From: Dictyostelium discoideum | Lineage: Eukaryota | Length of the DNA stretch: 64,000 nt | Reading direction: 5' to 3' | Assembly: GCA_000004695.1 (NCBI GenBank) | Contig: CM000150.2 | Span: 96,001-160,000, forward strand | Shown: in pieces, positions 1-64,000 of the stretch | Position numbering within the stretch: the stretch's first letter is position 1 | How the letters are laid out: the number at the start of each line of letters is the position of its first letter | Position numbers and translations under genes: made by a program | Notes under the pieces: generated by a model | Told to the model about the DNA's origin: nothing | The model's database searches: none | What the model saw: only the letters and a program-made list of their open reading frames with translations

Positions 1-163
1 TTGGTGTTGAAATGTCCATTTACATCATAAAATTGTTTATAAGAACGGTAATATGCAAGACAAAATGGACATATATTTTTATGCATAATATAATGAATAA
101 TAATATTTTTAAAATTCTTTAATTTTTCTCTGCAATTAATGCATGACATGTTATTTAAATTCA
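1..163 (-). CDS. N-terminal fragment (runs off window start) of a multicopy Cys-rich / C2H2-like zinc-finger protein family; ATG at 161-163; reverse complement of 62505-62665
   Basis: Reverse complement encodes MNLNN(I/M)SCINCREKLKNFKNIIIHYIMHKNICPFC..., near-identical to the N-termini at 62505 and 58825. Confidence 0.6.
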
Positions 164-179
164 TTTTGTTTGCTGGCTG

Positions 180-894
180 GAAATTAAAAATAATATTTTT
201 TTTTTTTTTTTCCTCGAGTTTTTACGTTTTTTTTTTTTTTTTTTTTTCATTTTATTCAAATTTTAGCATTTTAGCAAGTAGATATATGATTTAGTACTTA
301 GAATTTTATATTTAGAGGGATATACCCCATTTTCAAAAAATGACCGGGAACCTATGACCCTGTCTATACCTTTTTCTTTTTAAAATATTAAAAAAAAAAA
401 CTATAAAATCTGCCCAATTTATTGTAAAACTACACTAATGCAATAATATACATGTGCACTCGTTAATTGTTTATTAATTATAAAAAATAAAAAATAAAAA
501 ATCTTTTTTTATATGTATGTTTATACTTATAATATAAATATGAAAAACAAATAATTAAATTTTTTTTTTTTTTTTTTTGATATTTTTCGCTTTTTGAAAT
601 GAAAAGTAAAATTTAAAATAACATAATATAAAACCCAAGGCAATTGAAACACTTATTTATTATTAATTAATAAAAATAATAATAATAGAATTCAATTGCC
701 ACTGAAACAAATAAATAAAGAATTAAAATTACTTTGGTTATCTTTTTAGTTTTTTTTTTTTTTTAATTTTCATAATTTTTTTTTTTTTCTTTTATTTTCT
801 TATTTTTTTTTTTTTTTTAATAAATTTGAAATAAATAGTGTAAAAATTGATTTGAAATGTATTTAAAATGCATTTAAAATGTATTTTAAAAAAT
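180..894. repeat. Inverted copy of the upstream region found at 60866-62504, lacking the TIR element present at 61472-62373 (the empty site)
   Basis: Reverse-complement identity by eye, including poly-A/T runs; the TIR element and its TA duplication are absent here. Confidence 0.6.
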
Positions 895-1135
895 ATAATT
901 AATAAAAGCTTAAAAAAGGATTAATAAGTAATTTTAAATTACATTAAAAATAACTTTTTTAAATTTATTATAAAGTGATTAAAACATTATTTAAAAACCG
1001 CTTTATAATAAATTTAAAAGGTCATTTTTAATGTAATTTTAAATGACCTTAAAAATATCTTTAAAATTACCTTTTTAAAAAGCAAATTTTAAGCCAATTT
1101 AAAGTTGATTTAATGGTGTAATTTTCATCGCTGTG
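895..1135 (-). mobile_element. Fragment of TIR hairpin element (variant terminus ...CATCGCTGTG at 1135); homolog of the 59728-59995 palindrome arm
   Basis: Sequence identity to the 59740-59990 region; terminal CGCTGTG motif. Confidence 0.5.
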
Positions 1136-4078: not shown

Positions 4079-4130
4079 TTTCTAAGCTTTGACAATATCG
4101 CGTTTCTCGCCTAATGCATTATGTGCATGT

Positions 4131-4761
4131 ACAGCAAAGAAAAATCCACATTTAAAGCAAATTTAAAGCAAAGTTGATTTAAATTGGATTTAAATTGAAT
4201 TTAAAGCCGGGTTTAAAAAATTCATTTTCAAGGTAATTTTTAAGATAATTTTAAGATATTTAAAAATGCCTTTAAAATTTATTTTAAAATAATTTTAAAG
4301 AGGATTTAAAGTTGATTTAAAGTAGATTTAAAGTGAATTAAAATTTCCTTTAAATATAAATTTAAGGTTTTTAATAAAAAACATCTAATTTTAGATCAAA
4401 AAAATGGGGATAAAATATTCTATCATTTTTAAATTATCATCAAAGCAATCAAATGGTGTAATGGTTGATGAGACTACCCTTTGATTGATGAGACTACCCT
4501 TTTGGTAAATTTTCAAAAATTTCAAAAAAAAATTTTATAAAATTTATCCGTTAAATAACGGCTTCGAACTCCGGACCTCGCTTTTAAAGCCATTAAAAAG
4601 CTAATTCCTAAGGTAATTATAAAGGTAATTTATAAGGTGGTTTTAAAGTAACCTTAAAAATTACCTTTAAAATTACCTTAAAAATTGCTTTTGTACAGGA
4701 CTTTAAATTCGCTTTAAATTAAATTTAAATTTGCTTTAAAGGTGGTTTTTCTTTCACTGTG
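4131..4761 (+). mobile_element. TIR hairpin element (B-type end ...A-type end; left terminus 2 bp short), inserted into the 3' end of a phage-like gene
   Basis: Termini ACAGCAAAGAAAAATCCAC ... GGTGGTTTTTCTTTCACTGTG; internal tRNA-like/hairpin core. Confidence 0.7.
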
Positions 4762-5336: not shown

Positions 5337-6014
5337 CTGATTGAACTTAGGTTGTCTTAGAGTTCCTACCAGGAAAACTGCAACTGATATCATTGTTTGG
5401 TGATTACAAAAAAGACCAGTGTTATTGGCTGGTCTTTTTGAGTTATACGATACCGTTCTCTTTACGATAACGGAATATTTTTGATCTATCGATATTAAGC
5501 ATTTCTGCAATTACTTAATCGCTATTACCTCACCAAGCAGTTCGATAATCATGGCAATATGTTCTGGGTTAAGTTGTGTCTTTTGGCTTTTACTTAATGC
5601 TGATCTACCAACACAGCGAAGAAAAAACCACCTTTAAATTCGCTTTAAATTAAATTTAAATTTGCTTTAAAGTCCCGAATTAAAGCAATTTTAAAGGTAA
5701 TTTTAAAGCGAATTTAAAGGTGGTTTTTTCTTCGCTGTGTTGGTAGATCAGCATTAAGTAAAAGCCAAAAGACACAACTTAACCCAGAACATATTGCCAT
5801 GATTATCGAACTGCTTGGTGAGGTAATAGCGATTAAGTAATTGCAGAAATGCTTAATATCGATAGATCAAAAATATTCCGTTATCGTAAAGAGAACGGTA
5901 TCGTATAACTCAAAAAGACCAGCCAATAACACTGGTCTTTTTTGTAATCACCAAACAATGATATCAGTTGCAGTTTTCCTGGTAGGAACTCTAAGACAAC
6001 CTAAGTTCAATCAG
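5337..6014. repeat. Near-perfect ~275-bp-arm palindrome of phage-like sequence centred on a 128-bp mini TIR element
   Basis: 5337-5611 is the reverse complement of 5740-6014, read directly. Confidence 0.85.
5612..5739. mobile_element. Mini TIR element (internally deleted, two termini back to back) at the palindrome centre
   Basis: CACAGCGAAGAAAAAACCACCTTTAAA ... TTTAAAGGTGGTTTTTTCTTCGCTGTG. Confidence 0.7.
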
Positions 6015-6644
6015 TAAAACACTAAAAATTACCTTTAAAATTACCTTTAAAATTACCTTTTTAATCGCTTTAAAAGCGAGGTCCTGAGTTCGAAGCCGTT
6101 ATTTAACGGATAAATTTTTTAAAATTTTTTTTTTTAATTTTTCAAAAATTACCAAAAGGGATTCGATCCCCCGACCCTCTATCAAAGGGTAGTCTCATCA
6201 ACCATTACACCATTTGATTGCTTTGATGAAAATTTAAAAATGATAGAATATTTTATCCCCATTTTTTTGTTCTAAAATTAGATCTTTTTTATTAAAAACC
6301 TTAAATTTATGTTTAAAGGAAATTTAAATTCACTTTAAATCTACTTTAAATCTACTTTAAATCCTATTTAAAATTAATTTAAAATAAATTTTAAAGGTAT
6401 TTTTAAATATCATAAAAATTATCTTAAAAATTACCTTAAAAATCACCTTTAAAATCACCTTTAAAATCACCTTTATAAATTTATTTTAAAGCAAATTTTA
6501 AAGGCATTTTTAAATATCTTAAAAATTACCTTAAAAATTACCTTAAAAATGAATTTTTTAAACGCGGCTTTAAATTCAATTTAAATCCAATTTAAATCAA
6601 CTTTTCTTTAAATTTGCTTTAAAGGTGCATTTTTCTTTGCTGTG
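6015..6644 (-). mobile_element. TIR hairpin element, truncated on the palindrome side; B-type terminus at 6624-6644
   Basis: Internal modules and tRNA-like core in reverse orientation; terminus GGTGCATTTTTCTTTGCTGTG. Confidence 0.7.
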
Positions 6645-13263: not shown

Positions 13264-14344
13264 TTATATATCGTGGTATTTGTAAATTATAAGGTAATTG
13301 GTATCATCAATTTGAATTGGTATAACTATATTTAGAATACTATCATACGTAATATAATTTATTTGAAAGAAAATGGTATTGGTCACCAACATATTTGTCA
13401 AAATAATTTAATAATATTGAATGTTTTACTAGTTATCATCCATTTCAATCATTGATATTGAATTGATAATACCTGACCATCTACCTGAAAGTTCATTATA
13501 TGATGCAACTTCAACTGCATCACCAACATTGTATATTTCTTTATTATTTTTAATTGATGAGTGAAAAGTTAAATTTTTATAATTTTGAAATAATGAATCT
13601 AATTTAATTTTTATGTTATCTAAATTATCTGGATTTTTTATTTTATAATTAATGCTGTACTTTCAGGTTCAATACTTTTTAATTTAAAAAATTTCACCAT
13701 GTTTAATTTGGTAACCCTTTCATATTGTTCATCCCTATTATTTGTATTATTATTTAAATAATTTTTAATTCTTGATAATTGTGCTTCAAAAGTTTCAGCT
13801 TAAGTGTATTTTGGTGCACCCCAATTTTTTATATAGATTGGATAATATAACAACAAGTGGAAATTCGTTATTTCTGTTTCAGTAATTAAATTTACTTTTG
13901 CATTAAACGATTCAATTAATACTTGAAGTGAAATTAAATCATTTTCATCAAAGGAGTCACTATATAATTTAAAACATATAGTTACTAATTGTTCCATTAT
14001 TAAAAATCATCATTTGATATTTGATTTTTAATTGATATTAAAAGGTAATATAATATTGATCTATTCTCTCTTCCTTTCCTTGTTTTATTTGCAAATAGTG
14101 AAATTGATGGTTTTGGTTTATTATCTATTATTTTTGCATTTTTTAAATTATTTAAAAAATTTTCAATTTTTTTATTTTTATCAAAAATGTAATTTAAACA
14201 CCTTTGTGCGACACCTAATAAAATATGTCTGGTTGTGTTTTTAAATAATTAATGGACAAGGGTTCGACACCCTCTGTCCACACCTTTGATACCAATATCT
14301 TTTGCTTTTTTTTCCCATACTTTTTTTAATTCTATATCAGCATT
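13264..14344 (-). pseudogene. 3' part of a Cys-rich gene-family copy (continues from 17147-17460 across the DIRS-d insertion); frame broken
   Basis: Reverse complement matches 63860-64000 and downstream; GVDRGW(V/C)... region. Confidence 0.55.
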
Positions 14345-17146
14345 TATATTATCATATATATATATATATTATGAATAACATTTATTTATTTGAATTTCCC
14401 AAATATTTAAGATAATTTTTTAGAATGTTCTAGAAGAATAAAAAATTTTCGAAAGAAAAGTAAAAATTTCGAACCGGCACAATGACGCGATAATTGTTTA
14501 AGGTCGAAAAACTGAAAAATTCCGAACCGACACTATGCACAAAGTTGTGAAGGGTCGAAAACACTTATTTTTTTGAGTTTTGCGAAATTTTTAAGAAATA
14601 AAAACGTATAAATAGTGGCACTAAAAACTAAAAACAATTTGATTTATTTTATTTGGGAATTCCTCCTATATATATTTAAGATACACACACACACAAATTT
14701 TATACAAATAATTATTTCTCTTTATTAATTTTTAATATTATTATTTTTCTCATATTATATTTTTAGATATCAACAATAAAATATGTCTACCACTGTTAAT
14801 AATAATGAAGCCTCTAGTAGCAATACCTCTGCCTCTAATAGCGCTGAATCCTTTGATTTAAGAATGAAATCAATGGAGGTTCAAATCAACAACCTTTCCT
14901 TAGCCTTTACAAGATTCATGAAAGAACCTATGTTCTCTTCTAATACCAACTCACGTAGCCCACCTTCTCATGATCACTCTGACACCGAGAATGAACAAAG
15001 TGAAGATGAATCAAGTAACAATGTCGATGTTCCAACCGATTATCAATTATCCGATACCTTACTTGGTCAGGAATGTATCCTCAAGAAAGATGAGATATCC
15101 GAATTGAATAAAGTATTCAACTTTCCATCTAACTTCCAAGTGAACGTCGCTCCATTCGGTACACCTGAAGGTATTACTGTATCATCCAACGTCAAGAACA
15201 ATGATACTGACTTGTTGATTGTCGAAAAGCGAATCAACGATAGCTTAAAACCTTTGCTTCTCATGTCAAGTATGTTATCATCTGATAGCTCTAATGTCGA
15301 TGTAGAACTTATTAGTTACTTAACTCAGAGTGCAATCGTCTTAGCCTTTAATGCTCAAGCATCGCTTAGTCGTGTCCGTCGTAACAACATCGCTAAAGAA
15401 ATCTATGGTTCTGAAGTACTCTTACCAATTAAGATCAAGGATACACCAAAGATGTTTGATGAAACTGAAACTGAACGTGTAAGAAAACTAGCCAAGTCAA
15501 TCAGAAAGAACAACGAAGCTAAACAATCATTGTTAAAATTGAATTATCATTCCAAGTCAAATGTCAAGAAATCAGTTAACTCAAGTGGTAATAACACTAC
15601 AGGAAACAGTAGTAATAGTAAATCCAGTAGTGGGAGTAATGGCCGATCTAACAACTTCAATGGATCACCAAGTAATGTTGCATCAGGTAGCAACAATACC
15701 AAGTCTGTTTCCAAGTTACGACTATGTTCTTACAACCGATGCCTCGGAATCAGGTGCAGGTGCCACACTCAAGAAAGGAAACAAGGTAATCAAAACTTGG
15801 TCATTCCAATGGTCAACAACTCAATCAAATATGTAGTCAAATCGTCGAGAAATGCTCGCGCTGCTGATGGCCTATCAAGCGCTATGTCGGAAACTGAACA
15901 ACTGCAAGCTGAAGATTCAAACCGACAACACTACCACTCTCTCTTACATCAATCGCCAGGGTGGTCAAATACAAGATCTCTCAGTTCTGTTCGAACAACT
16001 TTGGAAACAATGCCTCAAGAAGAAAGTGAACTTGATTGGAGAGCATATTCCAGGATTCTTCAATGTAAAAGCCGACCACCTCAGCCGTCTTTCAGAGATG
16101 AATCACAAATCATCGTCCAGAGTAATCAAGAGTTACAACTGGCAACTGAAGAAGGAAGTGTTCAATCGCATCCAACTTCAATTCGGTCAAATACAGATGG
16201 ATCTGTTCGCATCTCACCTCAACCATCAAACGAACAACTACTCAACAATCAGAATGAATGCACTCCACCTCGATTGGAGTCAATGGAAGCAATGTCTAGC
16301 CTTCCCACCACCCATTCTTTTGCCTTCTATCCTGGAGAAGATGAACTCATCCAGTTCGAAGAAGGTTTCTATAATACTGATCTTCCCAATCTGGAGATCA
16401 GCAACTTGGTATCCGATGATTCAAGCACAAGTTCCTCGTCATCATCTTCACATGTTTCCTCAAGTACTGGGAACATTCCAAGAAGTATTGACCAAACAAT
16501 CAGTAGAGTCGATACCAATCCAGATTCAACAACGTTGGAAGCTGGGGATTATTCAACTTTCCAATCTCATGTAATGTCCTTCGCTCGTACAACAAATACA
16601 AAAACAGCTGAGCTGTTAATGAAGTCATGGGAACCTTCAACTCTCAAAGTATATAGCTCCAGTTATACAAGATTCCACAATTTCTGTACTTTGAACTCTT
16701 TGAATCCAGCCAACATTACCTTAGTTGTTTTCATGGATTATCTTACACATCTGTTCAAACACAAACCTCCGTTAGCCTTCTCAACAATTAACGGTCCCAA
16801 ATAAAATAAATCAAATTGTTTTTAGTTTTTAGTGCCACTATTTATACGTTTTTATTTTCTTAAAAATTTCGCAAAACTCAAAAAAATAAGAGTTTTCGAC
16901 CCTTCACAACTTTGTGCATAGTGTCGGTTCGGAATTTTTCAGTTTTTCGACCTTAAACAATTATCGCGTCATTGTGCCGGTTCGAAATTTTTACTTTTCT
17001 TTCGAAAATTTTTTATTCTTCGAATGTTCTAGAACATTCTAAAAAATTATCTTAAATATTTGGGAAATTCAAATAAATAAATGTTATTCATAATATATAT
17101 ATATATATTTAATATAAAATATAATTTAATAAATTAAATTTTTAAT
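14345..17146 (+). mobile_element. DIRS copy d, inserted without target duplication into the host gene-family copy; two internal deletions; right end is an inverted L-ITR
   Basis: Host sequence is exactly contiguous across the insertion (ctatatcagcattt | aattcagcataa). Confidence 0.8.
14783..16804 (+). pseudogene. 673-aa fusion ORF from deletion: ORF1 - RT overlap frame - N-terminal recombinase
   Basis: Comparison with copy b shows about a 1.1-kb deletion and loss of the recombinase catalytic half. Confidence 0.75.
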
Positions 17147-44419: not shown

Positions 44420-45121
44420 CACAGCAAAGAAAAATGCACCTTTAAAGCAAATTTAAAGTAAAGTTGATTTAAATTGGATTTAAATTGAATTTAAAGCCGC
44501 GTTTAAAAAATTCATTTTTAAGGTAATTTTTAAGGTAATTTTTAAGATATTTAAAAATGCCTTTAAAATTTGCTTAAAAATTTATTTTAAAGGTAATTTT
44601 AAAGGTGATTTTTAAGGTAATTTTTAAAATGATTTTTAAGATATTTAAAAATACCTTTAAAATTTATTTTAAATTAATTTTAAATAGGATTTAAAGTAGA
44701 TTTAAAGTAGATTTAAAGTGAATTTAAATTTCCTTAATATATAAATTTAAGGTTTTTAATAAAAAAGATCTAATTATAGATAAAAAAAATGGGGATAAAA
44801 TATTCTATCATTTTTAAATTTTCATCAAAGCAATCAAATGGTCGGGGGATCGAATCCCTTTTGGTAATTTTTGAAAAAATTAAAAAAAAAAAATTTAAAA
44901 AATTTATCCGTTAAATAACGGCTTCGAACTCAGGACCTCGCTTTTAAAGCGATTAAAAAGGTAATTTTAAAGGTAATTTTAAAGGTAATTTTAAAGGTGA
45001 TTTTAAAGTAACCTTAAAAATTACCTTTCAAATTACCTTTAAAATTGCTTTAATTCAGGACTTTAAAGCAAATTTAAATTTAATTTAAAGCGAATTTAAA
45101 GGTGGTTTTTTCTTTGCTGTG
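44420..45121 (+). mobile_element. TIR hairpin element (B-end to A-end), complete
   Basis: CACAGCAAAGAAAAATGCACC ... GGTGGTTTTTTCTTTGCTGTG. Confidence 0.75.
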
Positions 45122-45470: not shown

Positions 45471-46024
45471 TAAGATGATTTTTAAGGTAATTTTTAAGAT
45501 AATTTTTAAGATATTTAAAAAATACCTTTAAAATTTATTTTAAATTAATTTTAAATAGGATTTAAAGTAGATTTAAAGTATATTTAAAGTGAATTTAAAT
45601 TTCCTTTAAGTATAAATTTAAGGTTTTTAATTAAAAAGATCCATTTTTAGATCAAAAAAATGGGGATAAAATATTCTACCATATTTAAATTTTCATCAAA
45701 GCAATCAAATGGTGTAATGGTTGATGAGACTATCCTTTGATAGAGGGTCGGGGGATCGAATCCCTTTTGGTAATTTTTGAGAAATTAAAAAAAAAAATTT
45801 TAAAAAATTTATCCGTTAAATAACGGCTTCGAACCCAGGACCTCGCTTTTAAAGCGATTAAAAAGGTAATTTTAAAGGTAATTTTAAAGGTAATTTTTAA
45901 GGTGATTTTAAAGTAACCTTAAAAATTACCTTTAAAATTACCTTAAAAATTGCTTTAATTCAGGACTTTAAATTCGCTTTAAATTAAATTTAAATTTGCT
46001 TTAAAGGTGGTTTTTTCTTCGCTG
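45471..46024 (+). mobile_element. TIR hairpin element, 5'-truncated; its A-end terminus ends 2 bp from the stop codon of the adjacent gene paralog
   Basis: ...GGTGGTTTTTTCTTCGCTGTG at 46004-46024. Confidence 0.7.
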
Positions 46025-46026
46025 TG

Positions 46027-46745
46027 TTAATGCCGATTTTTTTCATTTTTTGTTTTGTTTCTAATTTTATTTTGAGGATTTGAAAAATCTTGTTTATTTG
46101 GTTTTGAATTGTGAAAGTCAATAATATCTTTTTGATTTCTAAAATTTCCTTCTTTTAATAAATAATCGACACCTCTTGGTTTATCACATGTATGACATGA
46201 GAAATCATTGCAATTATAATGGTTAATCCTACAAGATGATCTAAATTCTGTTATATGCATTGTTAATCCATATGGTATAATTTCATAATCATTTTCATTA
46301 TTATCTTTAATTTTTAATTTATTATTAAATTGCGCTGAAAATAATTTTTTAATTGTTTGATGTATATTGTGAAACCATTCTTTTGGAACAATAAAAAAAA
46401 CAATTTTATTATTTTTAAAAAATGGACCAACATAATTTTCAAAATCTACCAATAATGTATAATCTGATCTACCTTGATGACTCATTCCTTCACTAAATAT
46501 TCTTAATAAAATAAATTTATATAAAATTGAATTTTTTATTTTATTAAACTGTTCTCCAGATTTATAATTTTTATAAATACCTTGCTCATAGTCTTTTGAG
46601 AAATCTAAATATTCTAAAAAATTTTTTTTTTCAATTAATAATTTAACAACTGAATAAATTTCAAAATAAAAAATTGACTCTTCATTTGTAACTCAAAAAG
46701 TGACCATCGATAGGTAAATTTGCTAAAAATATAGAATCCATACAC
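46027..46745 (-). pseudogene. Diverged paralog (~45% identity, C-terminal domain only) of the Cys-rich gene family; in-frame stops near the N-terminus; bounded on both sides by outer TIR ends
   Basis: ORF 46027-46485 (…PYGLTMHITEFRSSCRINHYNCNDFSCHTCDKPRG…) plus upstream MDSIFLANLPIDGHFLSYK*. Confidence 0.5.
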
Positions 46746-46775
46746 AGCGAAGAAAAAACCACCTTAAAAGCAAAT
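46746..46775 (+). mobile_element. Solo TIR terminus (ACACAGCGAAGAAAAAACCACC) abutting the ATG of the paralog
   Basis: Read directly. Confidence 0.55.
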
Positions 46776-47768
46776 TTAATCTAAAAAAAAAACAAAAAAA
46801 GTATTATTTTAGATTTCTTCAACTTCATCAATAATATCAATGCTTTCAAAACCAATCACCAGTTCTTTTAAAATAAATTGATACTACAATTAAATAATAG
46901 CTGGTAAGTTAATATAATTTTTTTTTAAAAAAAAAAAAAATTAAAAAAAAAAAAAAAATAAATAATAATAATAAAATAAAATAGATAGACTAATTTGAAA
47001 AATAATAATTATATTTTAGGTTACCTTTCTTATTATACCAACAACCACTTCTTTTCAATCAAATTGATACTTCACTTATATAATAACTGGTAAGTCAATA
47101 TAATTTTTTTTTTTTAAAAAAAAAATAATAATATAAAATAAAGAGATTAATATAATTTAAACAATTATATTTTAGGTTGTTTCTTCTTTTATTAGAACCT
47201 GTAAAGTAAATGCTTTTGGTACAAATTATAATGGAAATAAAGTTCTGCTTTTCAAATTAGTCAATTATAAATGTTGTATTACCATTAAATAAAAAAAATT
47301 TCTGATTTCAAATACTTTTACTTTTTAATTAATTCTTTTTTTTTTTTTTTTTTTTTTAAATTTATTTTAAATTATTATTATAAAATGTTATTTTTAATTT
47401 TTATTTTTAAGTATTCTTATTAAGTGAACTTTATAATTACCCTTAATAATTACCCTTATTAATTATAATTAATAATTCCACTTAATAGTTATACTTAATA
47501 ATTATACTTAATAATTTTAATTATTAATTATATTTTATTATTATACTTAATAATTATGCTTAATAAATATACTTTTTAATTATACTTAATAAATATACTT
47601 AATAAATATACTTTTTAATTATACTTATTAATTATACTTAATAAATATACTTAATAATTATACTTAATAATTATACTTAATAAATATACTTATTAAGTAT
47701 ACTTAATAATAGTACTATTTACGTTCCTACTTTAAAGATGCTTTTAAGTATTTTTTTTCGCCCCTGTG
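46776..47768 (-). mobile_element. Second TIR family, right arm (tandem ~200-bp units with GTAAGT...TTTTAG intron-like boundaries, satellite 47400-47700, terminus ending CCCCTGTG at 47768)
   Basis: Reverse complement of the 17461-18188 arm. Confidence 0.65.
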
Positions 47769-53313: not shown

Positions 53314-53835
53314 ATGCGTGTACGGCGACCTAGTGCAACGGTAATCAACATTACCATCAAGTCCAACCGCCTGCGTACAGGTCGTTCAGAAGTTCAGTTC
53401 TATGATAAACAATCCGACCCCTATGAAAAAGCAGACCGTGACTTTCCTATCAATCTGCGTGGTGTGTATGAAACATTATTGAGTCGTCACCCACATACCT
53501 TAATGTTAGAGCCTAGTCTGAACACTTTGGTCAATAATGCCATATCTGATACCGGTGGTTTGGATCGTCGAATGAATGCCCAAACTGGTGCAATCTTGGC
53601 GATGGATAAAGGTGTTCAGATCTATAACAAGTTCCTATCGGCTACTGGCGTGCTTAGATCTCTTTTGTTAAATGCATTGTGGCAGGTGTGCGTTTCAAGA
53701 TCTCTGACAGTCATGAGGGTAAAGGTGTTATCGTTCATGTCTTTAAAGATGAAGATGCACCGACATGGCGTGCGTACAGATGTCATCGTGGATAACGCCT
53801 CTATCACTAAAACTCTATTGAACAGTTTGAGTTGA
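53314..53835 (+). CDS. Phage-like hypothetical protein (173 aa); upstream frames 53014-53344 look like frameshifted parts of the same gene
   Basis: ORF track; overlapping stop/start with the next gene. Confidence 0.35.
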   Translation: MRVRRPSATVINITIKSNRLRTGRSEVQFYDKQSDPYEKADRDFPINLRGVYETLLSRHPHTLMLEPSLNTLVNNAISDTGGLDRRMNAQTGAILAMDKGVQIYNKFLSATGVLRSLLLNALWQVCVSRSLTVMRVKVLSFMSLKMKMHRHGVRTDVIVDNASITKTLLNSLS

Positions 53836-54452
53836 TGTCCAACAGTCCTATCTATCAGTCCAAAGCAAACCGTGATCATCATGTGAGCTGGGTGATTGAA
53901 CATGAAGTAGAGCTGCTAGCGTTAACTGATCGCTTGTATTATGGGGCAGAGCAGATTCTTCGCATTAAGAAGAACCATGACTTCCCAACATATCCTGCTC
54001 GTTATCGAGCACCTTATGGGAGGTTTGTGATAACTCGTGATCCAGTAATGATTGTACCAGTGTATATCATCCTGTTGGAAAAGATGAGGGAATATTTGGT
54101 TTCCTATGCAGTGCCTAAGTTAATGCACTTCGGTACTTTATCTATTATTACTCAAGTAGACAAGTACGCCCTCCCTTGGCGTAATGTACCAACTCGTTTG
54201 GCTGGTGAGTCAGACATTCGTCTGTTCTGGCGGCTGGTACACAAACCGTCTATTATCATTGCCAATACACCGGCAATGCAGAAAGCAGTAGGTAAGTTAT
54301 TGCGTCATGAGAATCCAATGCGTATTGACAATTTGATGGATGAAAGTGTATCTCCACTAGGTCGTAATCGACCAGTGCAGATGTATAAACACATGCAAGC
54401 TTGTCGTGGTATTCGCTTTGAACGTCAATTGTTAACTGAAGGGGCCGCTTAA
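53835..54452 (+). CDS. Phage-like hypothetical protein (about 205 aa)
   Basis: ATG at 53835 overlaps the TGA of the upstream ORF. Confidence 0.4.
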   Translation: MSNSPIYQSKANRDHHVSWVIEHEVELLALTDRLYYGAEQILRIKKNHDFPTYPARYRAPYGRFVITRDPVMIVPVYIILLEKMREYLVSYAVPKLMHFGTLSIITQVDKYALPWRNVPTRLAGESDIRLFWRLVHKPSIIIANTPAMQKAVGKLLRHENPMRIDNLMDESVSPLGRNRPVQMYKHMQACRGIRFERQLLTEGAA

Positions 54453-54474
54453 AGCAGATCGGCAAGATTTGCTA

Positions 54475-55059
54475 ATGAATGGAGAGCAGATCTGGTCGTT
54501 AGATCCTCAGTGTAATAATCCTAAAGTTCAGGTTCTCGCTGAGGATAAAACTTTTGAGATGTTGGTGCGTCCTCTGATAGCCAGCTGGCCAATTCAGAAG
54601 TTCCAAGAAGGGATGGCTCTGGGTAAGCGGCATTTCTTAACAGGGTTCCGCATTTCAAACAAAGGTATCCGTAACATACTGACCGAAGGGTATCGTGACT
54701 ACGATATGATCATTGTACAACTAATGGGCACTGATCTGACCGGTGGGTTCATCGATGTAGTGAAATTTAACTCATTACAAGCCCGTACCATTAACCATAT
54801 CAACAACGCCTTTGTTGCAAGAATTCCTGAATATGTCACTACTGCAAGTATGGTTGACTATTTAGAGATTCTATTATTCGTCAAGTTCGAGCAGGTCTGG
54901 TTTAGTTCCAGAAATCTATCGGCTAGGCTTATAAGAAAGGACTGGGCCATATCAAAAACCCTGATAAATTTCCAAAGAATCAAATCGCTGAGGATATCAA
55001 ACAAGGCGGTGTTTCCGATGGCCAGACTGCTCAGGTGTTTATCTCATGTGGTTACCTAA
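54475..55059 (+). CDS. Phage-like hypothetical protein (about 194 aa)
   Basis: ORF track; ATG 23 bp after the previous stop. Confidence 0.35.
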   Translation: MNGEQIWSLDPQCNNPKVQVLAEDKTFEMLVRPLIASWPIQKFQEGMALGKRHFLTGFRISNKGIRNILTEGYRDYDMIIVQLMGTDLTGGFIDVVKFNSLQARTINHINNAFVARIPEYVTTASMVDYLEILLFVKFEQVWFSSRNLSARLIRKDWAISKTLINFQRIKSLRISNKAVFPMARLLRCLSHVVT

Positions 55060-55990
55060 CCGACCATAACTCCAGGATCTTTGTTCGTCCTGTTACGGTC
55101 AAGGTATTGGTAGCTTCTATGAAGCCTTTGTTGAATCACATTCTGCTACTGAGGCCATGATCTTTACCAAGAAACCATTGGAGGATTCAGAATGGTTTAA
55201 CCGTAAGTTACAATTGGTCGGTTAGGCCATACAGCGCGTCCATCTTGGTGAGGATTGAGGTACTCAAATTACAGTACCGGTAATAATGCGTCCAGGCTGG
55301 TCCGGTGTAATGGCGGGTAAGTATTACGTAGACGACAGTGGTCAGATGTAAGCCATTCATGAGAAAGATGAAGGTAAACTGCTGCGTATAAGGTCACTAA
55401 TGTATTGTCAGCATAAATATCGTTCGGGTGTTTATGAGCGCTGTTATGGTAAGTTGGCTATGTCGATCCCGTATTTCAACGTACTGGGCAAGATAGGGAA
55501 AAACGAAGCCATTGCTGGGCACGTGTCCGCAACAGAATTTGATGCTGCTTTATAACAGAAGATGTTGTCCACTAAACACCTGGATACTTCTTCTACGGTG
55601 GATCCGTTTATCATTCATCGTGAAGATGCAATTTATATAACGTGTGGTATTCGTGATAATACTGCTGGTTTAAACCTACGACTGAAAGGGCAGAATGTAG
55701 CCAGATGACGTAGGGATTGTGCTTGATCAGTTCTTAGAGTTACTTAACCGACTTCTACAGGTGAATATCGTTCATGCTGAAATGATTCTGTACTCGGTAA
55801 TGGTGCGTGACCCAAGCAAGTTGGATCATTGCTTACCGCGCGCTAACGAACAACGGCAGTTTAGTTCTTATCACGAATGTATCGAATTCCCCAGTCTTTT
55901 GGTGCAGTTGCTGTATCAAGAGCAAGCGGATGTTATGATGAAACCCATGACGTTCTTAATTGATAACCGTCAGTCACATCGGCAGATAGA

Positions 55991-56083
55991 TTATATTACC
56001 CATCTGTTCAAGCACAAACCTCCGTTAGCCTTCTCAACAATTAACGGTCATCGATCAATGTTGAATCAGTTGTTACTCCTTAG
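55991..56083 (+). mobile_element. ~93-bp fragment of the DIRS recombinase ORF (…HLFKHKPPLAFSTINGHRSMLNQLLLL…) embedded in phage-like island E
   Basis: Near-identity to DIRS sequence; shares the ttcaaGcac variant with the adjacent copy l. Confidence 0.7.
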
Positions 56084-56110
56084 TATCTTTGCAGACTAAG
56101 GGGTAGGGCG

Positions 56111-56506
56111 ATGCGCACTACGGCAACGCTTATCATTGGTAATCATGGATTTACGGTTAAAGACTACAATGATGAGTTCTACAGTAAGGCAAGGGCGTAC
56201 TGCGCACGTTTCGTTAAATACCGGATTGAATCTAAGGTCGTCCAAGGACGGAGATCTTTTGTCAAGGTACCAGATCGTGTATTCGGCTCAGCTTCGAAGG
56301 ACCGTAAAGAGCTACACATTAACTGTTTAGCTGAATTTAAACAATTTATGTTGAATAGTGGTTGGAACCCTGAACGGTTCAAAGAAATCACCAGGGAATT
56401 ACCTGAGGGACGAGATGTCAATTCCAATGACCACCAGGTTGCAGTACCAGTTAGAGAAAGATCCTTCTGGTATCACGACCCGAATCAATACATTGCAAAC
56501 GGGTAA
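56111..56506 (+). CDS. Phage-like hypothetical protein (131 aa)
   Basis: ORF track. Confidence 0.35.
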   Translation: MRTTATLIIGNHGFTVKDYNDEFYSKARAYCARFVKYRIESKVVQGRRSFVKVPDRVFGSASKDRKELHINCLAEFKQFMLNSGWNPERFKEITRELPEGRDVNSNDHQVAVPVRERSFWYHDPNQYIANG

Positions 56507-56615
56507 AGGAAAGACATTCTATGCCATATACAACATGTTCAAACTGCAGAAGCTCACTGGCATTATGTTAATGCCGAAGTACATCACGACTTGGCATACT
56601 GGCTTACATGACTTT

Positions 56616-57334
56616 CACAGCGAAGAAAAAACCACCTTTAAAGCAAATTTAAAGCAAATTTGATTTAAATTGGATTTAAATTGAATTTAAAGCCGCGTTT
56701 AAAAAATTCATTTTTAAGGTAATTTTTAAGGTAATTTTTAAGATATTTAAAAATGCCTTTAAAATTTGCTTTAAATTAAATTTTTAAGCAATTTTTAAGG
56801 TAATTTTTAAGGTGATTTTTAAGATAATTTTAAGATATTTTAAAAATACCTTTAAAATTTATTTTAAAGTAATTTTAAAGAAGATTAAAAGTAGATTTAA
56901 AGTGAATTTAAATTTCCTTTAAACATAAATTTAAGGTTTTTAATAAAAAAGATCTAGTTTTAGAACAAAAAAATGGTGATAAAATATTCTATCATTTTTA
57001 AATTTTTCATCAAAGCAATCAAATGGTGTAATGGTTGATGAGACTATCCTTTGATAGAGGGTCGGGGGATCGAATCCCTTTTGGTAATTTTTGAAAAAAT
57101 TAAAAAAAAAATTTAAAAAATTTATCCGTTAAATAACGGCTTCGAACTCAGGACCTCGCTTTTAAAGCGATTAAAAAGGTAATTTTAAAGGTAATTTTAA
57201 AGGTAATTTTAAAGGTAATTTTAAAGTAACCTTAAAAATTACCTTTAAAATTACCTTTAAAATTGCTTTAATTCAGGACTTTAAAGCAAATTTAAATTTA
57301 AAGCGAATTTAAAGGTGGTTTTTTCTTCGCTGTG
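56616..57334 (+). mobile_element. TIR hairpin element, complete (B-end to A-end)
   Basis: CACAGCGAAGAAAAAACCACC ... GGTGGTTTTTTCTTCGCTGTG; tRNA-like hairpin core 57020-57100. Confidence 0.75.
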
Positions 57335-57528
57335 AAAAGATAATAATTTAATAAACTTTAAATGTTTTTTGAAAAAACACATTTAGGGTCAGTGATTTTT
57401 TTTTTCACTGCGCTACTGTAGTGAAATTAAATAATAAAATTAACTACGCTACTGTAGTGAAATTTTATTGAAAATTCCCTACAACAATTTGGTTTGGTTG
57501 AGTGAAAATTTGTAATATCATCTTGTTT

Positions 57529-58825
57529 TCATAATGTACCTGATTGGCAAATAAATAAACCATCTCTTGGCTTGTCACATGTGTGACATGAATATTCATT
57601 TGAATTATGTCCATTAAGTTTACACGATGCTCTAAATTCTGGAATATCCATTGTCAGTCCCAACGGTACAACATCTATTTGTTCGTTTTCAATAATTAAA
57701 TTAAAGCCAATACCAATAAAAGATGAAAACAATGTCATAATGGTTTGATGAAAATTAAGTAACCAATCATTTGGTACTACAAATAATAATAATTTATTGT
57801 TTTTAAATTCATTTCCAATATAATTTTCTATATCCAGCATTATAGAATAATCTTTCTTGTATTGACACCGCATACTATCAGTGAATATTCTAAGTAAAAC
57901 AATTTTATTTTTATTTTTATTTTTCGAATCTTTAAATTGTTGACCACTTTTATAATTTGTATAAATTCCAGTTTCAAAATGTGTATCAAAATCAATTCTA
58001 TTAAAAAATTGCTTTTTATTCAATAAAGTTTCTAATACTTTTTTAATTTCAAAATAAAAAATTGAGTGATCATAATTTTTATTTATAAATGTTTCTCCTT
58101 TTATTTGAAAATTTTCCATAAATAATTTATCCATATATAGAGGTGTGTATCTTATTAGATTTAAATTAGTTTATTTTTGTCAATAAAACTTTTAAATTTT
58201 TCAAGTAGCTTTAAACTTATTGAGTTTTCAATTCCCAACATTAAAAATTCAATTTCAGTTTCATTTAATTTTTTTTTGATTTTTTATTATCTAAATTATT
58301 ATTTTGATTATTATTTATTGGTTCATTTTGACCATTTTCATTATTTTCATTATTTTCATTATTTTTTGCTCCATTTTGATCTATTATATTTTCATCATCA
58401 CTATGTCGCAACCTAATTGTATCATGATTTTCTTCATTATCAATTGTTTGATTGTTTTCATTATTTTCATTATTTTCTTGATAAATAATTTCATCTTGGT
58501 TTTGGTTACATAAATGTTTACATGGGTCATCTATATCATTTGTTGGATATTTTATTTTTTCACCAGTAATATCCATTGATTTTTTATAAAAGCTATCTCT
58601 TTTTGGATTATTTGTAATAATTTTACTTTGTTCATTTTTACATTTTTTGGTGTTGAAATGTCCATTTCCATCATAAAATTGTTTATAAGAACGGTAATAT
58701 GAAAGACAAAATGGACATATATTTTTATGCATAATATAATGAATAATAATATTTTTAAAATTCTTTAATTTTTCTCTGCAATTAATGCATGATATGTTAT
58801 TTAAATTCATTTTGTTTGCAGTCAA
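57529..58825 (-). pseudogene. Cys-rich / zinc-finger-like gene-family copy; a 9-versus-10 A-run difference at about 58140-58260 shifts the frame
   Basis: ORFs 58265-58825 (N-terminal zinc finger and acidic NEN repeats) and 57529-58134 (C-terminal domain) are collinear with the open reading frame at 62505-64000. Confidence 0.55.
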
Positions 58826-58901
58826 ATGACCTATCAGTGAATAATTGAATTAATTATAATTAACTCAGCATATTTTAAAAAAGATGGAGTTATCCTAGAA
58901 A

Positions 58902-59472
58902 TCACAGCGAAGAAAAAACCACCTTTAAATTCGCTTTAAATTAAATTTAAATTTGCTTTAAAGTCCTGAATTAAAGCAATTTTAAAGGTAATTTTAAAGG
59001 TAATTTTTAAGGTTACTTTAAAATTACCTTTAAAATTACCTTTAAAATTACCTTTTTAATCGCTTTAAAAGCGAGGTCCTGAGTTCGAAGCCGTTATTTA
59101 ACGGATAAATTTTTTAAATTTTTTTTTTTAATTTTTCAAAAATTACCAAAAGGGATTCGATCCCCCGACCCTCTATTAAAGGATACTCTCATCAACCATT
59201 ACACCATTTGATTGCTTTGATGAAAAATTTAAAAATGATAGAATATTTTATCCCCATTTTTTTGTCTAAAATTAGATCTTTTTTTATTAAAAACCTTAAA
59301 TTTATTTTAAAGCGATTAAAAAGGTAATTTTAAAGGTAATTTTTAAGGTGATTTTAAAGTAACCTTAAAAATTACCTTTAAAATTACCTTAAAAATTGCT
59401 TTAATTCAGGACTTTAAATTCGCTTTAAATTAAATTTAAATTTGCTTTAAAGGTGGTTTTTTCTTCGCCGTG
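58902..59472. mobile_element. TIR hairpin element with A-type ends on both sides, starting 77 bp upstream of the gene start at 58825
   Basis: CACAGCGAAG... and ...CTTCGCCGTG termini. Confidence 0.7.
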
Positions 59473-59727
59473 CTTAAAAATCACCTTTAAAATAAACTTT
59501 AAAATGACCTTGAAAATTACCTTTAAAATTATCTTTAAAATGACCTTTAAAATTACCTTTAAAATGCTCTTTAAAATTAAGTTTAAAATGCCCTTTAAAA
59601 TTAACTTTATAATGCTCTTTAAAATTACTTAAAAATATGATTAAAAATTATATTAATAATTACATTTTAAAGTTCCTTAAAAATTGAATTTTAAAGTTTA
59701 TTAATAATTACATTAAAGCACCTTACA
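59473..59727. repeat. Tandem ~20-bp repeats (ACCTTTAAAATNNN)
   Basis: Read directly. Confidence 0.6.
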
Positions 59728-60240
59728 CAGCAAAGAAAAATGCACCTTTAAAGCCAATTTCAAGCAAATACAATTTAAATTTGCTTTAAATTGGCTTTAA
59801 ATTTGCTTTTTAAAAAGGTAATTTTAAGGATATTTTTAAGGTCATTTAAAATTACATTAAAAATGACCTTTTAAATTTATTATAAAGCGGTTTTTAAATA
59901 ATGTTTTAATCACTTTATAATAAATTTAAAAAAGTTATTTTTAATGTAATTTAAAATAACTTATCAATCCTTTTTTAAGCTTTTATTACACAGCAAAGAA
60001 AAAACCACCTTTAAATTCGCTTTAAATTAAATTTAAATTTGCTTTAAAGTCCTGAATTAAAGCAATTTTAAAGGTAATTTTAAAGCGAATTTAAAGGTGG
60101 TTTTTTCTTTGCTGTGTAATAAAAGCTTAAAAAAGGATTGATAAGTTATTTTAAATTACATTAAAAATAACTTTTTTAAATTTATTATAAAGTGATTAAA
60201 ACATTATTAAAACCGCTTATAATAATTAAAAGGCATTTTA
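59728..60240. repeat. Imperfect palindrome (~130-250-bp arms) centred on a mini TIR element (59989-60116)
   Basis: Flanks aagcttttatta | taataaaagctt are reverse complements. Confidence 0.7.
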
Positions 60241-60865
60241 TGTAATTTAAGACCTAAAAATCCTAAATACCTTTTTAATGGCTTTAAAAGCGAGGTCCTG
60301 AGTTCGAATCCGTTATTTACGAATAATTTTTTAAATTTTTTTTTTATTTTTCAAAAATTACCCAAAAGGGATTCGATCCCCCGACCCTCTATCAAAGGGT
60401 AGTCTCATCAACCATTACACCATTTGATTGCTTTGATGAAAAATTTAAAAATGATAGAATATTTTATCCCCATTTTTTTGTGCTAAAATTAGATCTTTTT
60501 TATTAAAAACCTTAAATTTATGTTTAAAGGAAATTTAAATTCACTTTAAATCTACTTTTAATCTACTTTAAATCCTATTTAAAATTAATTTAAAATAAAT
60601 TTTAAAGGTATTTTTAAATATCTTAAAAATTATCTTAAAAATTACCTTAAAAATCACCTTTAAAATCACCTTTAAAATCACCTTTAAAATTGCTTAAAAA
60701 TTTATTTTAAAGCAAATTTTAAAGGCATTTTTAAATATCTTAAAAATTACCTTAAAAATTACCTTAAAAATGAATTTTTTAAACGCGGCTTTAAATTCAA
60801 TTTAAATCCAATTTAAATCAACTTTTCTTTAAATTTGCTTTAAAGGTGCATTTTTCTTTGCTGTG
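60241..60865 (-). mobile_element. TIR hairpin element (B-type terminus at 60845-60865), left side merging into the palindrome
   Basis: Reverse-orientation internal modules; terminus GGTGCATTTTTCTTTGCTGTG. Confidence 0.65.
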
Positions 60866-61471
60866 TAATTATATTTTTTAAAATACATTTTAAATGCATT
60901 TTAAATACATTTCAAATCAATTTTTACACTATTTATTCCAAATTTATTAAAAAAAAAAAAAAAAAATAAGAAAATAAAAAAAAAAAAAAAAATTAAGAAA
61001 ATTAAAAAAAAAAAAAACTAAAAAGATAACCAAATTAATTTTAATTCTTTATTTATTTGTTTCAGTGGCAATTGAATTCTATTATTATTATTTTTATTAA
61101 TTAATAAAAAATAAGTGTTTCAGTTGCCTTGGGTTTTATATTATTTTATTTTAAATTTTACTTCTCATTTCAAAAAGCGAAAAATATCAAAAAAAAAAAA
61201 AAAAAAATTTAATTATTTGTTTTGCATATTTATATTATAAGTATAAACATACATATAAAAAAAGATTTTTTATTTTTTATTTTTAATAATTAATAAACAA
61301 TTAACGAGTGCACAGGTATATTATTGCATTAGTGTAGTTTTACAATAAATTGGGCAGATTTTATAGTTTTTTTTTTAATATTTTAAAAAGAAAAAGGTAT
61401 AGACAGGGTCATAGGTTCCCCGTCATTTTTTGAAAATGGGGTATATCCCTCTAAATATAAAATTCTAAGTA

Positions 61472-62373
61472 CACAGCAAAGAAAAATGCACCTTTAAAGC
61501 AAATTTAAAGAAAAGTTGATTTAAATTAGATTTAAATTGAATTTAAAGCCGCGTTTAAAAAATTCATTTTTAAGGTAATTTTTAAGGTAATTTTTAAGAT
61601 ATTTAAAAATGCCTTTAAAATTTGCTTTAAAATAAATTTTTAAGCAATTTTAAAGGTGATTTTAAAGGTGATTTTAAAGGTAATTTTTAAGGTAATTTTT
61701 AAGATAATTTTTAAGATATTTAAAAATACCTTTAAAATTTATTTTAAATTAATTTTAAATAGGATTTAAAGTAGATTTAAAGTAGATTTAAAGTGAATTT
61801 AAATTTCCTTTAAACATAAATTTAAGGTTTTTAATAAAAAAGATCTAATTTTAGAACAAAAAAATGGTGATAAAATATTCTATCATTTTTAAATTTTTCA
61901 TCAAAGCAATCAAATGGTGTAATGGTTGATGAGAATACCCTTTGATAGAGGGTCGGGGGGATCGAATCCCTTTTGGTAATTTTAGAACAAAAAAATGGTG
62001 ATAAAATATTCTATCATTTTTAAATTTTTCATCAAAGCAATCAAATGGTGTAATGGTTGATGAGACTATCCTTTGATAGAGGGTCGGGGGATCGAATCCC
62101 TTTTGGTAATTTTTGAAAAATTAAAAAAAAAAATTTAAAAAATTTATCCGTTAAATAACGGCTTCGAACTCAGGACCTCGCTTTTAAAGCGATTAAAAAG
62201 GTAATTTTAAAGGTAATTTTAAAGGTAATTTTAAAGGTAATTTTAAAGGTAATTTTAAAGTAACCTTAAAAATCACCTTTAAAATTACCTTTAAAATTGC
62301 TTTAATTCAGGACTTTAAAGCAAATTTAAATTTAATTAAAAGCGAATTTAAAGGTGGTTTTTTCTTCGCTGTG
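61472..62373 (+). mobile_element. TIR hairpin element, complete, with TA target duplication (61470-61471 and 62374-62375) and an internal ~125-bp tandem duplication of the tRNA-like core
   Basis: The empty site (gatttagTActtagaa) is present in the inverted paralogous copy at about 286-300. Confidence 0.8.
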
Positions 62374-62504
62374 TACTAAATCATATATCTACTTTCTATA
62401 ATGCTAAAATTTGAATAAAATGAAAAAAAAAAAAAAAAAAACGTAAAAACTCGAGGAAAAAAAAAAAAAAAAATATTATTTTTAATTTCCAGCCAGCAAA
62501 CAAA

Positions 62505-64000
62505 ATGAATTTAAATAACATATCATGCATTAATTGCAGAGAAAAATTAAAGAATTTTAAAAATATTATTATTCATTATATTATGCATAAAAATATATGT
62601 CCATTTTGTCTTGCATATTACCGTTCTTATAAACAATTTTATGATGTAAATGGACATTTCAACACCAAAAAATGTAAAAATGAACAAAATAAAATTATTA
62701 CAAATAATCAAAAAAGAGATAGCTTTTATAAAAAATTAATGGATATTACTGGTGAAAAAATAAAATATCCAACAAATGATCCAGATGACCCATGTAAACA
62801 TTTATGTAACCAAAACCAAGATGAAATTTTTTATCAAGAAAATAATGAAAATAATGAAAATAATCAAACAATTGATAATGAAGAAAATCATGATATAATT
62901 GGGTTGGTACATAGTGAAGATGAAAACAATGAAATTAGAATAGATGAAAATGAAGCAAACATTAATAATGAAAATAATGAAAATAATGAAAATGAAAATG
63001 CTCAAAACGAACCAATAAATAATAATCTAAATAATAATTTAGATAATGAAAAATCAAAAAAAAAATTAAATGAAACTGAAATTGAATTTTTAATGTTGGG
63101 AATTGAAAACTCAATAAGTTTAAAGCTACTTGAAAAATTTAAAAGTTTTATTGACAAAAATAAAACCAATTTAAATCAAATAAGATACACACCTCAATAT
63201 ATGGATAAATTATTTATGGAAGATTTTCAAATAAAAGGAGAAACATTTATAAATAAAAATTATGATCACTCAATTTTTTATTTTGAAATTAAAAAAGTAT
63301 TAGAAACTTTATTAAATAAAAAGCAATTTTTTGAAAGAATAGATTTTGATACAGATTTTGAAACTGGAATTTATACAAATTATAAAAGTGGTCAACAATT
63401 TAAAGATTTAAAAAATAAAAATAAAAATAAAATTGTTTTACTTAGAATATTCACTGATAGTATGCAGTGTCAAAACAAGAAAGATTATACTATAATGCTG
63501 GATATAGAAAATTATATTGGAAATGAATTTAAAAATAATAAATTATTATTATTTGTAGTACCAAATGATTGGTTACTTAATTTTCATCAAACAATTAGGG
63601 CATTGTTTTCATCTTTTATTGGTAATGGCTTTAATTTAATTATTGAAAATGAACAAATAGATGTTGTACCGTTTGGACTGACAATGGATATTCCAGAATT
63701 TAGAGCATCGTGTAAACTTAATGGACATAATTCAAATGAATATGCATGTCACACATGTGACAAACCAAGAGATGGTTTATTTATTTGCAAATCAGGTACA
63801 TTAAGAAAACAAGAAGATATTACAAATTTTCACTCCAACAAACCAAATTATGCTGAATTAAATGCTGATATAGAATTAAAAAAAGTATGGGAAAAAAAAG
63901 CAAAAGATATTGGTATCAAAGGTGTGGACAGAGGGTGGGTCGAACCCTTGTCCATTAATTATTTAAAAACACAACCAGACATATTACATAATATTTTATT
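62505..64000 (+). CDS. Cys-rich / C2H2-like zinc-finger protein of the multicopy family, open to the window end (at least 498 codons): N-terminal CxxC...HxxxH finger, acidic NEN repeats, C-terminal domain with CKLNGHNSNEYACHTCDKPRDGLFIC
   Basis: Manual translation from the ATG at 62505 without a stop; absent from the ORF track because no stop lies in the window. Confidence 0.6.
   Translation, partial: MNLNNISCINCREKLKNFKNIIIHYIMHKNICPFCLAYYRSYKQFYDVNGHFNTKKCKNEQNKIITNNQKRDSFYKKLMDITGEKIKYPTNDPDDPCKHLCNQNQDEIFYQENNENNENNQTIDNEENHDIIGLVHSEDENNEIRIDENEANINNENNENNENENAQNEPINNNLNNNLDNEKSKKKLNETEIEFLMLGIENSISLKLLEKFKSFIDKNKTNLNQIRYTPQYMDKLFMEDFQIKGETFINKNYDHSIFYFEIKKVLETLLNKKQFFERIDFDTDFETGIYTNYKSGQQFKDLKNKNKNKIVLLRIFTDSMQCQNKKDYTIMLDIENYIGNEFKNNKLLLFVVPNDWLLNFHQTIRALFSSFIGNGFNLIIENEQIDVVPFGLTMDIPEFRASCKLNGHNSNEYACHTCDKPRDGLFICKSGTLRKQEDITNFHSNKPNYAELNADIELKKVWEKKAKDIGIKGVDRGWVEPLSINYLKTQPDILHNIL

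Follow-up and report, generated by a model that had tools for sequence, protein, structure and literature searches.

A short non-autonomous transposon nested in a longer relative, most likely of the DDT family, in the centromere region of Dictyostelium discoideum chromosome 1

The DNA transposons of Dictyostelium discoideum include the Tdd, DDT and thug elements, which make up 0.5%, 0.9% and 0.1% of the genome, respectively (PMC5633606). In the centromere of chromosome 1, DDT elements account for 22%, and thug is not among the listed components (PMC2665215). The DDT-B consensus is 5,471 bp long, and an A/B-box motif in DDT-B attracts TRE5-A (PMC9012585). In a 2017 review the transposases of DDT were described as unlike any known. 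Among the other described systems relevant here, MITEs of the CACTA/EnSpm-Mirage-Chapaev (CMC) group have CAC..GTG ends and 2-bp duplications (PMC6004678), and the tree of the CMCT group in the supplement of PMC12730594 includes a Repbase family named EnSpm-1_DDi.

The window, which is the whole stretch of 64,000 nucleotides that was analysed, is the centromere region of AX4 chromosome 1, built of transposons as described in PMC2665215. An ORF on the reverse strand (57529-58134) was 100% identical to DDB_G0267348 of Dictyostelium discoideum AX4, and ORFs nearby matched DDB_G0267350, DDB_G0267274 and DDB_G0267190. The bulk of the window was made up of DIRS-1-like copies, with overlapping ORFs and a tyrosine recombinase, together with a gypsy-type element. 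A search of the window with Rfam gave a tRNA-Leu at 5161-5247 as the sole hit. The family described here, taken as the sum of its short and long parts, covered about 13.1 kb of the 64 kb, or about 20% of the window. Its members and the associated features are listed in Table 1.

Table 1. Positions of family members and associated features. Positions refer to the window unless a fetched locus (L) is named; lower-case flanks are unmatched.
Feature	Position	Strand	Flanks	Description
Copy J	61472..62373	+	TA/TA	short non-autonomous element, 902 bp
Tandem duplication in J	61846..62127	+		131 bp; doubles A-box-like TGGTGTAATGG and B-box-like GGATCGAATCC
Hairpin in J	62197..62306	.		long, near-perfect; made of GGTAATTTTAAA units (12 bp) in either orientation; centre at about element position 791
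Copy I*	59989..60865	-	TA/TA	second recent insertion; holds fold-back palindrome 59876-60037/60068-60229
Inverted paralogue of J surroundings	1..1113	-		97% identity; cut off by DIRS-1 at 1136
Element K	59726..64000	+		long relative; 21-bp left end identical to J; continues past window end
Candidate transposase ORF of K	62505..63998	+		first 498 codons, no stop to window end
Second transposase gene copy	57486..58819	-		truncated (DDB_G0267348 + DDB_G0267350); between short copies G and H
Further transposase gene	13266..14346	-		3' fragment with frameshifts and stop codon; cut off by DIRS-1; further piece 17145-17460
Copy A	4130..4761	+	tg/ta	old, degenerate; 83-91% identity
Copy C*	5612..6644	-	AA/AA	interrupted by fold-back palindrome, arms 5335-5660/5691-6016
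Copy D	44420..45121	+	AA/AA	702 bp; 35-bp deletion removes A-box-like motif
Copy E	45471..46026	+		5'-truncated; abuts decayed second-subfamily transposase fragment 46027-46685 (-)
Copy F	46743..46779	+		37-bp terminal stub
Copy G	56616..57334	+	tt/aa	719 bp; both ends of 'right' type; at junction of unrelated sequences
Copy H	58903..59472	.	at/ct	rearranged; two right ends
Unnamed short copy	L003:11449-12160		TA/TA
Unnamed short copy	L008:4043-4801		TT/TT
Unnamed short copy	L008:4841-5599		TT/TT
Long element	L007:5218-10251		TG/TG

The borders of copy J read ...ctaagTA/CACAGCAAAGAAAAATGCACC...GGTGGTTTTTTCTTCGCTGTG/TActaaatc, enclosing 902 bp with the inverted ends CACAG...CTGTG. The terminal 21-mer, allowing at most three mismatches, occurred 17 times in the window and not once in 100 shuffles, and comparison of J with the window by BLAST identified about ten copies or fragments. 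The element is thus real and bounded as the preliminary description had it. Alignment of nine copies gave a family consensus of about 770 bp with 21-bp inverted ends; J exceeds this length because of a 131-bp tandem duplication of its central part. Inside the ends are subterminal arrays of units such as GGTAATTTTAAA, in which TTTAAA is repeated at 11-12 bp intervals in both orientations, and it is because of these arrays that the single strand folds far better than shuffled sequence (z = -15.5). The interior is hairpin-rich, in keeping with the small palindromes first noted there. The 'tRNA-like arm' noted with them corresponds to an A-box-like TGGTGTAATGG and a B-box-like GGATCGAATCC motif, which lie 44 bp apart in the centre of the element and were present in every copy that retains this region. 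It is a motif pair and not a tRNA, since neither Rfam nor ARAGORN called a tRNA in the central part, and in J there was none even at E values up to 10; the only Rfam matches to J were sub-threshold ones to generic miRNA-hairpin models.

Evidence for mobility came from the inverted paralogue at the start of the window. For this comparison the DNA on either side of J was joined and copy I* was also removed. The resulting sequence (59775-59988, 60866-61471 and 62374-62668) was 97.05% identical (1087 of 1120 columns) to the reverse complement of 1-1113. The paralogue was empty at the position of J, with a single TA at 296/297, and the filled site had exactly one TA more. It was also empty at the position of I*, with a single TA at 901/902 and again exactly one TA more when filled. 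Both positions were uninterrupted in long elements from two other assemblies as well (L007 and L004). J is an insertion that is accompanied by a 2-bp duplication, and the window itself shows that the family moved after a local segmental duplication. That J is mobile and non-autonomous and is bounded by terminal inverted repeats, and that a filled and an empty site occur within one window, had both been claimed beforehand; both claims hold, with two filled and empty pairs (J and I*) rather than one.

The same sites could also be read as the result of precise excision from the paralogue, in which case the filled sites would not be new insertions. Cut-and-paste elements do excise, and there was time for excision, because the two paralogues differ by 3%. 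However, cut-and-paste excision normally leaves both copies of the duplication or a footprint, and exactly one TA and nothing else was found at each of the two empty sites. The uninterrupted long elements of the two other genomes also speak against excision, as do J and I* themselves, which were 97.9% identical over 524 bp and looked the youngest of the copies. Excision is extremely improbable as the origin of the empty sites, and J and I* are treated below as insertions.

To define the duplication, flanks were compared for all two-ended copies in the window and in the loci fetched via a neighbouring gene (n = 11). Identical 2-bp flanks bounded eight of the 11 copies, with TA in three, AA in two, TT in two and TG in one. 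The chance that two random dinucleotides are identical in this AT-rich DNA is 0.114 per copy, which gives a probability of about 3e-6 for at least eight of 11. The complete element of a second subfamily (L010:3615-9383) had the unmatched flanks ca/aa. That the duplication is 2 bp long, variable in sequence and not specific to TA is well supported. The original proposal of a TA duplication therefore stands as to its length and as to J, but TA is not obligatory, since five of the eight matched flanks were other than TA. Copy D had been recorded as complete and without clean TA flanks, which is correct, although a duplication is nevertheless present there as AA/AA. A 4-bp duplication of GTAC, left possible in the preliminary description, fits J alone and was rejected because I* would require that TTAC equal GTAA; the second filled and empty pair rules it out.

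Because the duplication is not TA-specific, the element is not Tc1/mariner- or Stowaway-like, which was the affiliation first suggested. Under that affiliation J would be a Tc1/mariner-type element or a Stowaway-like MITE that inserts at TA only and is moved by a Tc1/mariner transposase. The TA/TA flanks of J, I* and the copy at L003 would agree with this, and the family does resemble Tc1/mariner elements and Stowaway MITEs in its 2-bp duplication, which is typical of that superfamily, and in its short, non-coding, well-folding derivatives with inverted ends. The AA, TT and TG duplications do not agree with it, the ends are CAC...GTG and are followed by long subterminal repeat arrays of a different architecture, and the protein encoded by the element with the identical end contained no Tc1/mariner, pogo or HTH_Tnp domain at E values up to 10. 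With TA restriction, ends and partner protein all differing, membership in this superfamily is very improbable.

A search for a partner with matching terminal repeats, which had been proposed as a check, led to element K, whose left 21 bp are identical to those of J and which carries a candidate transposase ORF. Without I* and J, K consists of about 1 kb of non-coding DNA followed by the ORF from 62505. The predicted protein contains a zinc finger of the C2H2 type at its N-terminal end, and its motifs include LLRIFTDSM, GLTMDIPEF, CHTC and QPDILHNIL. From the terminal repeat onward, K was colinear with L004:8898-10881 of D. cf. discoideum at 77% identity. A complete relative (L007:5218-10251) was 5,034 bp long with ends beginning CACAGCAATG; it contained a transposase-sized ORF with one frameshift and a second gene downstream. 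The second-subfamily element at L010 was 5,769 bp long and differed in its ends (CACAGGGGCGAAAATCAG...) and in its subterminal repeat. J does have a coding relative whose terminus is identical, and some copies of this relative have long open frames. Short and long elements have in common the CACAG...CTGTG ends, the variable 2-bp duplication and the TTTAAA arrays at 11-12 bp, which are concentrated within the subterminal 250-500 bp of either type, at 11 to 15 units per 250 bp over a background of 1.6. A clear A/B-box pair was found in the short copies only and not in the long element of the same subfamily.

Since both J and I* lie inside K, they are nested insertions in a larger member of their own family. 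The earlier observation that no copy contains a transposase gene is accurate for the short copies, but J itself is nested in K, the carrier of a candidate transposase gene. Dictyostelium elements are said to prefer loci that are already occupied by their own family, and the nesting of J and I* in K fits this preference. Two other arrangements were considered and dropped. The copies at L008 suggested that the long second-subfamily element might be a composite between two short copies; this was abandoned because the right-hand L008 copy is an insertion into the second gene and the intact element at L010 has its own ends. A preference for the transposase gene as an insertion target was suggested by termini that face such a gene three times, and one of those three genes is a 3' fragment.

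The likely explanation of the locus is that J is a non-coding cut-and-paste transposon of the approximately 770-bp type, which inserted in the 5' non-coding DNA of a coding member of its own family. The protein of about 830 amino acids encoded by the long elements would act on the short copies in trans as their transposase, recognising and binding the shared ends and subterminal repeats and excising the element; reinsertion would occur by a cut of the target with a 2-bp stagger, giving rise to the 2-bp duplication.

The family is most likely DDT, in which DDT-A and DDT-B would be the long forms and DDT-S the short one, a match made by published description. The short copies here are presumably DDT-S. 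DDT is enriched in the DIRS-1 clusters of the centromeres, where it takes up about 20% of the length (22% for chromosome 1; PMC2665215), and the family described here covered about 20% of the window. The complete long elements (5,034 and 5,769 bp) are close in length to the 5,471-bp DDT-B consensus (PMC9012585), whereas the A/B box, described in DDT-B, was seen here as a clear pair in the short copies only. As far as the accounts of DDT in PMC5633606, PMC2665215 and PMC9012585 extend (originally Glockner et al. 2001), DDT resembles the family in its host, in its centromere-enriched location, in long forms that measure about 5.0 to 5.8 kb here, in an A/B-box-like motif (here that of the short copies), in a transposase unlike known ones and in a preference for insertion in its own family; no difference emerged in this comparison by published description. 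Most likely, then, the family was already catalogued in 2001, and J is an ordinary nested insertion in a transposon-built centromere. In that case the termini probably belong to a known family of another class than the one first suggested, namely DDT with a CMC/EnSpm-like transposase.

The same mechanism could operate if the family were thug, with thug-S as the coding and thug-T as the non-coding form. Thug is also a catalogued family of Dictyostelium DNA transposons, thug-S contains an intron-bearing ORF and is a source of miRNA-like small RNAs derived from hairpins (PMC4894637, PMC6161686), and the short copies here are extremely hairpin-rich. However, thug makes up 0.1% of the genome and DDT 0.9% (PMC5633606), and thug is not among the components of the centromere, of which DDT is about 20% (PMC2665215), as is the present family of the window. 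The long elements, at about 5.0 to 5.8 kb, are close to DDT-B (PMC9012585), and the ORF of K is free of introns over its first 498 codons, unlike that of thug-S. Identity with thug is accordingly unlikely, and the name DDT is preferred.

The preliminary description also listed mini derivatives of about 128 bp. The sequences exist, at 5612-5739 and 59989-60116, but they are the centres of palindromes and not free-standing elements. The first lies at the centre of arms 5335-5660/5691-6016 (98% identical) and the second at the centre of arms 59876-60037/60068-60229 (91%), each with a 30-nt spacer. Each unit consists of the terminal 97 nt or so of an ordinary copy, a switch at a TTTAAAG unit and the last 31 nt of the end, followed by inverted flank, and the truncated remainder of the same copy resumes 8 to 35 bp past each palindrome. 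In these two copies the palindrome pivots on the midpoint of the long hairpin native to the element, near element position 791. A locus from another assembly (L002), which was 99.93% identical to 52904-60098 of the window, carried at 59989 an ordinary copy that lacks the palindrome.

The 128-bp units are probably full copies rearranged by fold-back or template switching, or else differences of assembly. Alternatively, they might be genuine mobile miniatures that have two right ends and target palindromic DNA. In favour of this, the two units are nearly identical, with perfect inverted arms of 49 nt in each and with the same internal junction, for which rearrangement accounts only in part. However, the flanks of each unit repeat one another in inverted orientation (113 and 277 bp), which insertion does not create. 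They also continue into the truncated full copy just beyond the palindrome, the same locus in L002 has a full copy without a palindrome, and a free 128-bp copy was found in none of the ten fetched loci. Mobile miniature elements are thus quite unlikely, and rearrangement or assembly is the favoured reading. Large palindromes form at short inverted repeats by fold-back or template switch, as in gene amplification in yeast and mammals. As in those systems, a native hairpin, here that of the element, centres an inverted duplication that reaches into the flank in two copies, whereas the arms here are only 113 and 277 bp long and lie inside a transposon copy. The hairpin-centred palindromes provide a lead on how hairpin-rich repeats may destabilise centromeric DNA or be mis-assembled in it.

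Full-length versions of the candidate transposase were about 830 amino acids long (P0028, 831 amino acids; P0027, 814 amino acids, from a cluster of 20 near-identical members). All 45 homologues were from D. discoideum or D. cf. discoideum, and they formed two subfamilies that were about 50% identical. A HMMER profile search of 1.84 billion representatives, a library without organism names, returned 19 proteins, the majority of them also present among the 45 from Dictyostelium only. Pfam searches of the transposase fragments and of full-length proteins (P0027, P0028, P0030 and P0034) gave no transposase family at E values up to 10, and a profile search of PDB sequences gave no match, RAG1 and Transib included. 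An AlphaFold2 model of P0028 from an alignment of 15 sequences had a mean pLDDT of 35, too poor for use. Because there was no profile match and the model was unusable, assignment to the DDE transposases of the CMC group rests on the residue pattern, the ends and the length of the duplication.

In the alignment D310 (LLRIF[TS]D), D387 (GLTMDIPEF) and E633 (TSAExFE) were invariant, and C407-x2-C410 (CHTC) and H612-x3-H616 (HLLLH) were nearly so. Read together with termini of CAC...GTG and a duplication of 2 bp, this D, D, C(2)C, H(3)H, E series suggests a DDE transposase of the CMC/CMCT type, with D310, D387 and E633 as putative catalytic residues. The suffix DDi in EnSpm-1_DDi presumably denotes D. 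discoideum, following Repbase naming. The name suggests that a CMC/EnSpm-like assignment may already exist, and EnSpm-1_DDi is probably the Repbase entry for this family, judging by its name.

Beyond this, DDT could tentatively be regarded as a deep-branching CMC lineage, restricted to Dictyostelium, that makes sequence-independent 2-bp duplications, a possibility that is on balance doubtful. If it is correct, hairpin chemistry like that of RAG and Transib, or the long hairpins of the elements themselves, may produce the fold-back palindromes at the two copies, and palindromes driven by hairpins would make the elements active shapers of the centromere. The A/B box of Pol III type in the short copies may then also be a landing pad for TRE retrotransposons, which target tRNA genes.

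Comparison with the described CMC elements showed both differences and likenesses. Similarity to CMC transposases was not detected by Pfam, PDB or HMMER profile searches, and at the sensitivity of HMMER the protein family is confined to Dictyostelium. The duplications of EnSpm proper are 3 bp long and those of this family 2 bp, and ESTA duplicates TA only, whereas the 2 bp duplicated here are variable. On the other hand, within the account of the CMCT group (CACTA/EnSpm, Mirage, Chapaev and ESTA) that PMC12730594 gives after Yuan and Wessler (2011), the clade has 5'-CAC...GTG-3' ends, duplications of 2-5 bp and D, D, C(2)C, H(3)H, E residues in the order in which the conserved residues of the candidate transposase stand here. 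Termini of the form CA(C)...(G)TG were found as CACAG...CTGTG in the short copies and in the long elements at L007 and L010, and the duplication was 2 bp in eight of 11 copies and in both filled and empty pairs. Subterminal arrays of a motif of about 12 bp in both orientations are shared with En/Spm, and the CMC/CMCT elements in general likewise have a further gene downstream of that for the transposase and abundant non-coding deletion derivatives. Together with the residue pattern, the ends and the 2-bp length of the duplication offer a testable CMC/EnSpm-like assignment for elements that the 2017 review called unclassifiable.

Each of the two fold-back palindromes in the window has at its centre a hairpin native to a short element copy, and the internal junction is identical in the two. 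Contig L002, which covers the same locus in another assembly, lacks the palindrome at 59876-60229. The other palindrome has its left arm 88 bp from a tRNA-Leu(UAA) gene, which is housed in a transposon nest and is intact in appearance. A segment of ~40 bp (GCAAATTTAAATTTAATTTAAAGCGAA) near the right end of the short copies has its orientation flipped in copy E (window 45471-46026) and copy A (window 4130-4761) when these are set against J (window 61472-62373), D and G, and short inverted TTTAAAG units lie on either side of it.

At locus L008, two short copies of 759 bp each, both flanked by TT/TT, were arranged head-to-head with 39 bp between them, and the pair sat immediately upstream of a second-subfamily transposase gene. 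At L003 a transposase ORF was interrupted by a short element insertion; the deposited gene model there, P0005, runs into the terminal repeat and has the C-terminal end ...HSKEKCTFKANLKQS. Several deposited models of the transposase family are, like P0005, chimeric or exon-skipping (for example P0010, P0016, P0024, P0025, and P0038).

Short element G marks the abrupt end of a stretch with a GC content of 38-43%, in which plus-strand ORFs follow one another in series with the frame shifting from one to the next. The last of these ORFs contains a Walker-A-like LQTGKGKTF motif. Pfam gave no matches for any ORF of this chain, and a search of 5.8 billion proteins returned a single homologue, P0009, from a Logan assembly. 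The stretch looks like a decayed large gene within the centromere.

Features in the window and at other loci
Feature	Location	Strand	Detail
tRNA-Leu(UAA) gene	window 5158-5247	-	ARAGORN; Rfam 50.7 bits
Fold-back palindrome	window 5335-6016
Fold-back palindrome	window 59876-60229
ORF-bearing stretch	window 52900-56615
ORF	53314-53835	+
ORF	53832-54452	+
ORF	54469-55059	+
ORF	55719-56099	+
ORF	56111-56506	+
ORF	56358-56663	+
Transposase ORF with short element insertion	L003:10001-12160
Short copy	L008:4043-4801
Short copy	L008:4841-5599
Second gene	L007:8676-9630		MNSSANFITPNG...
Second gene	L008:8400-8593		MTHNNSASFETPN...
Second-subfamily long element	L010:3615-9383		5,769 bp; ends CACAGGGGCGAAAATCAG...

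The subterminal repeat unit of the second-subfamily long element at L010 was TACTTAATAAGTA, while the first subfamily and the short copies have TTTAAA units instead. In long elements the transposase gene was followed by a second gene, which was not found in the window by tblastn. This arrangement, a transposase with a second gene downstream, recalls the two-gene layout of En/Spm.
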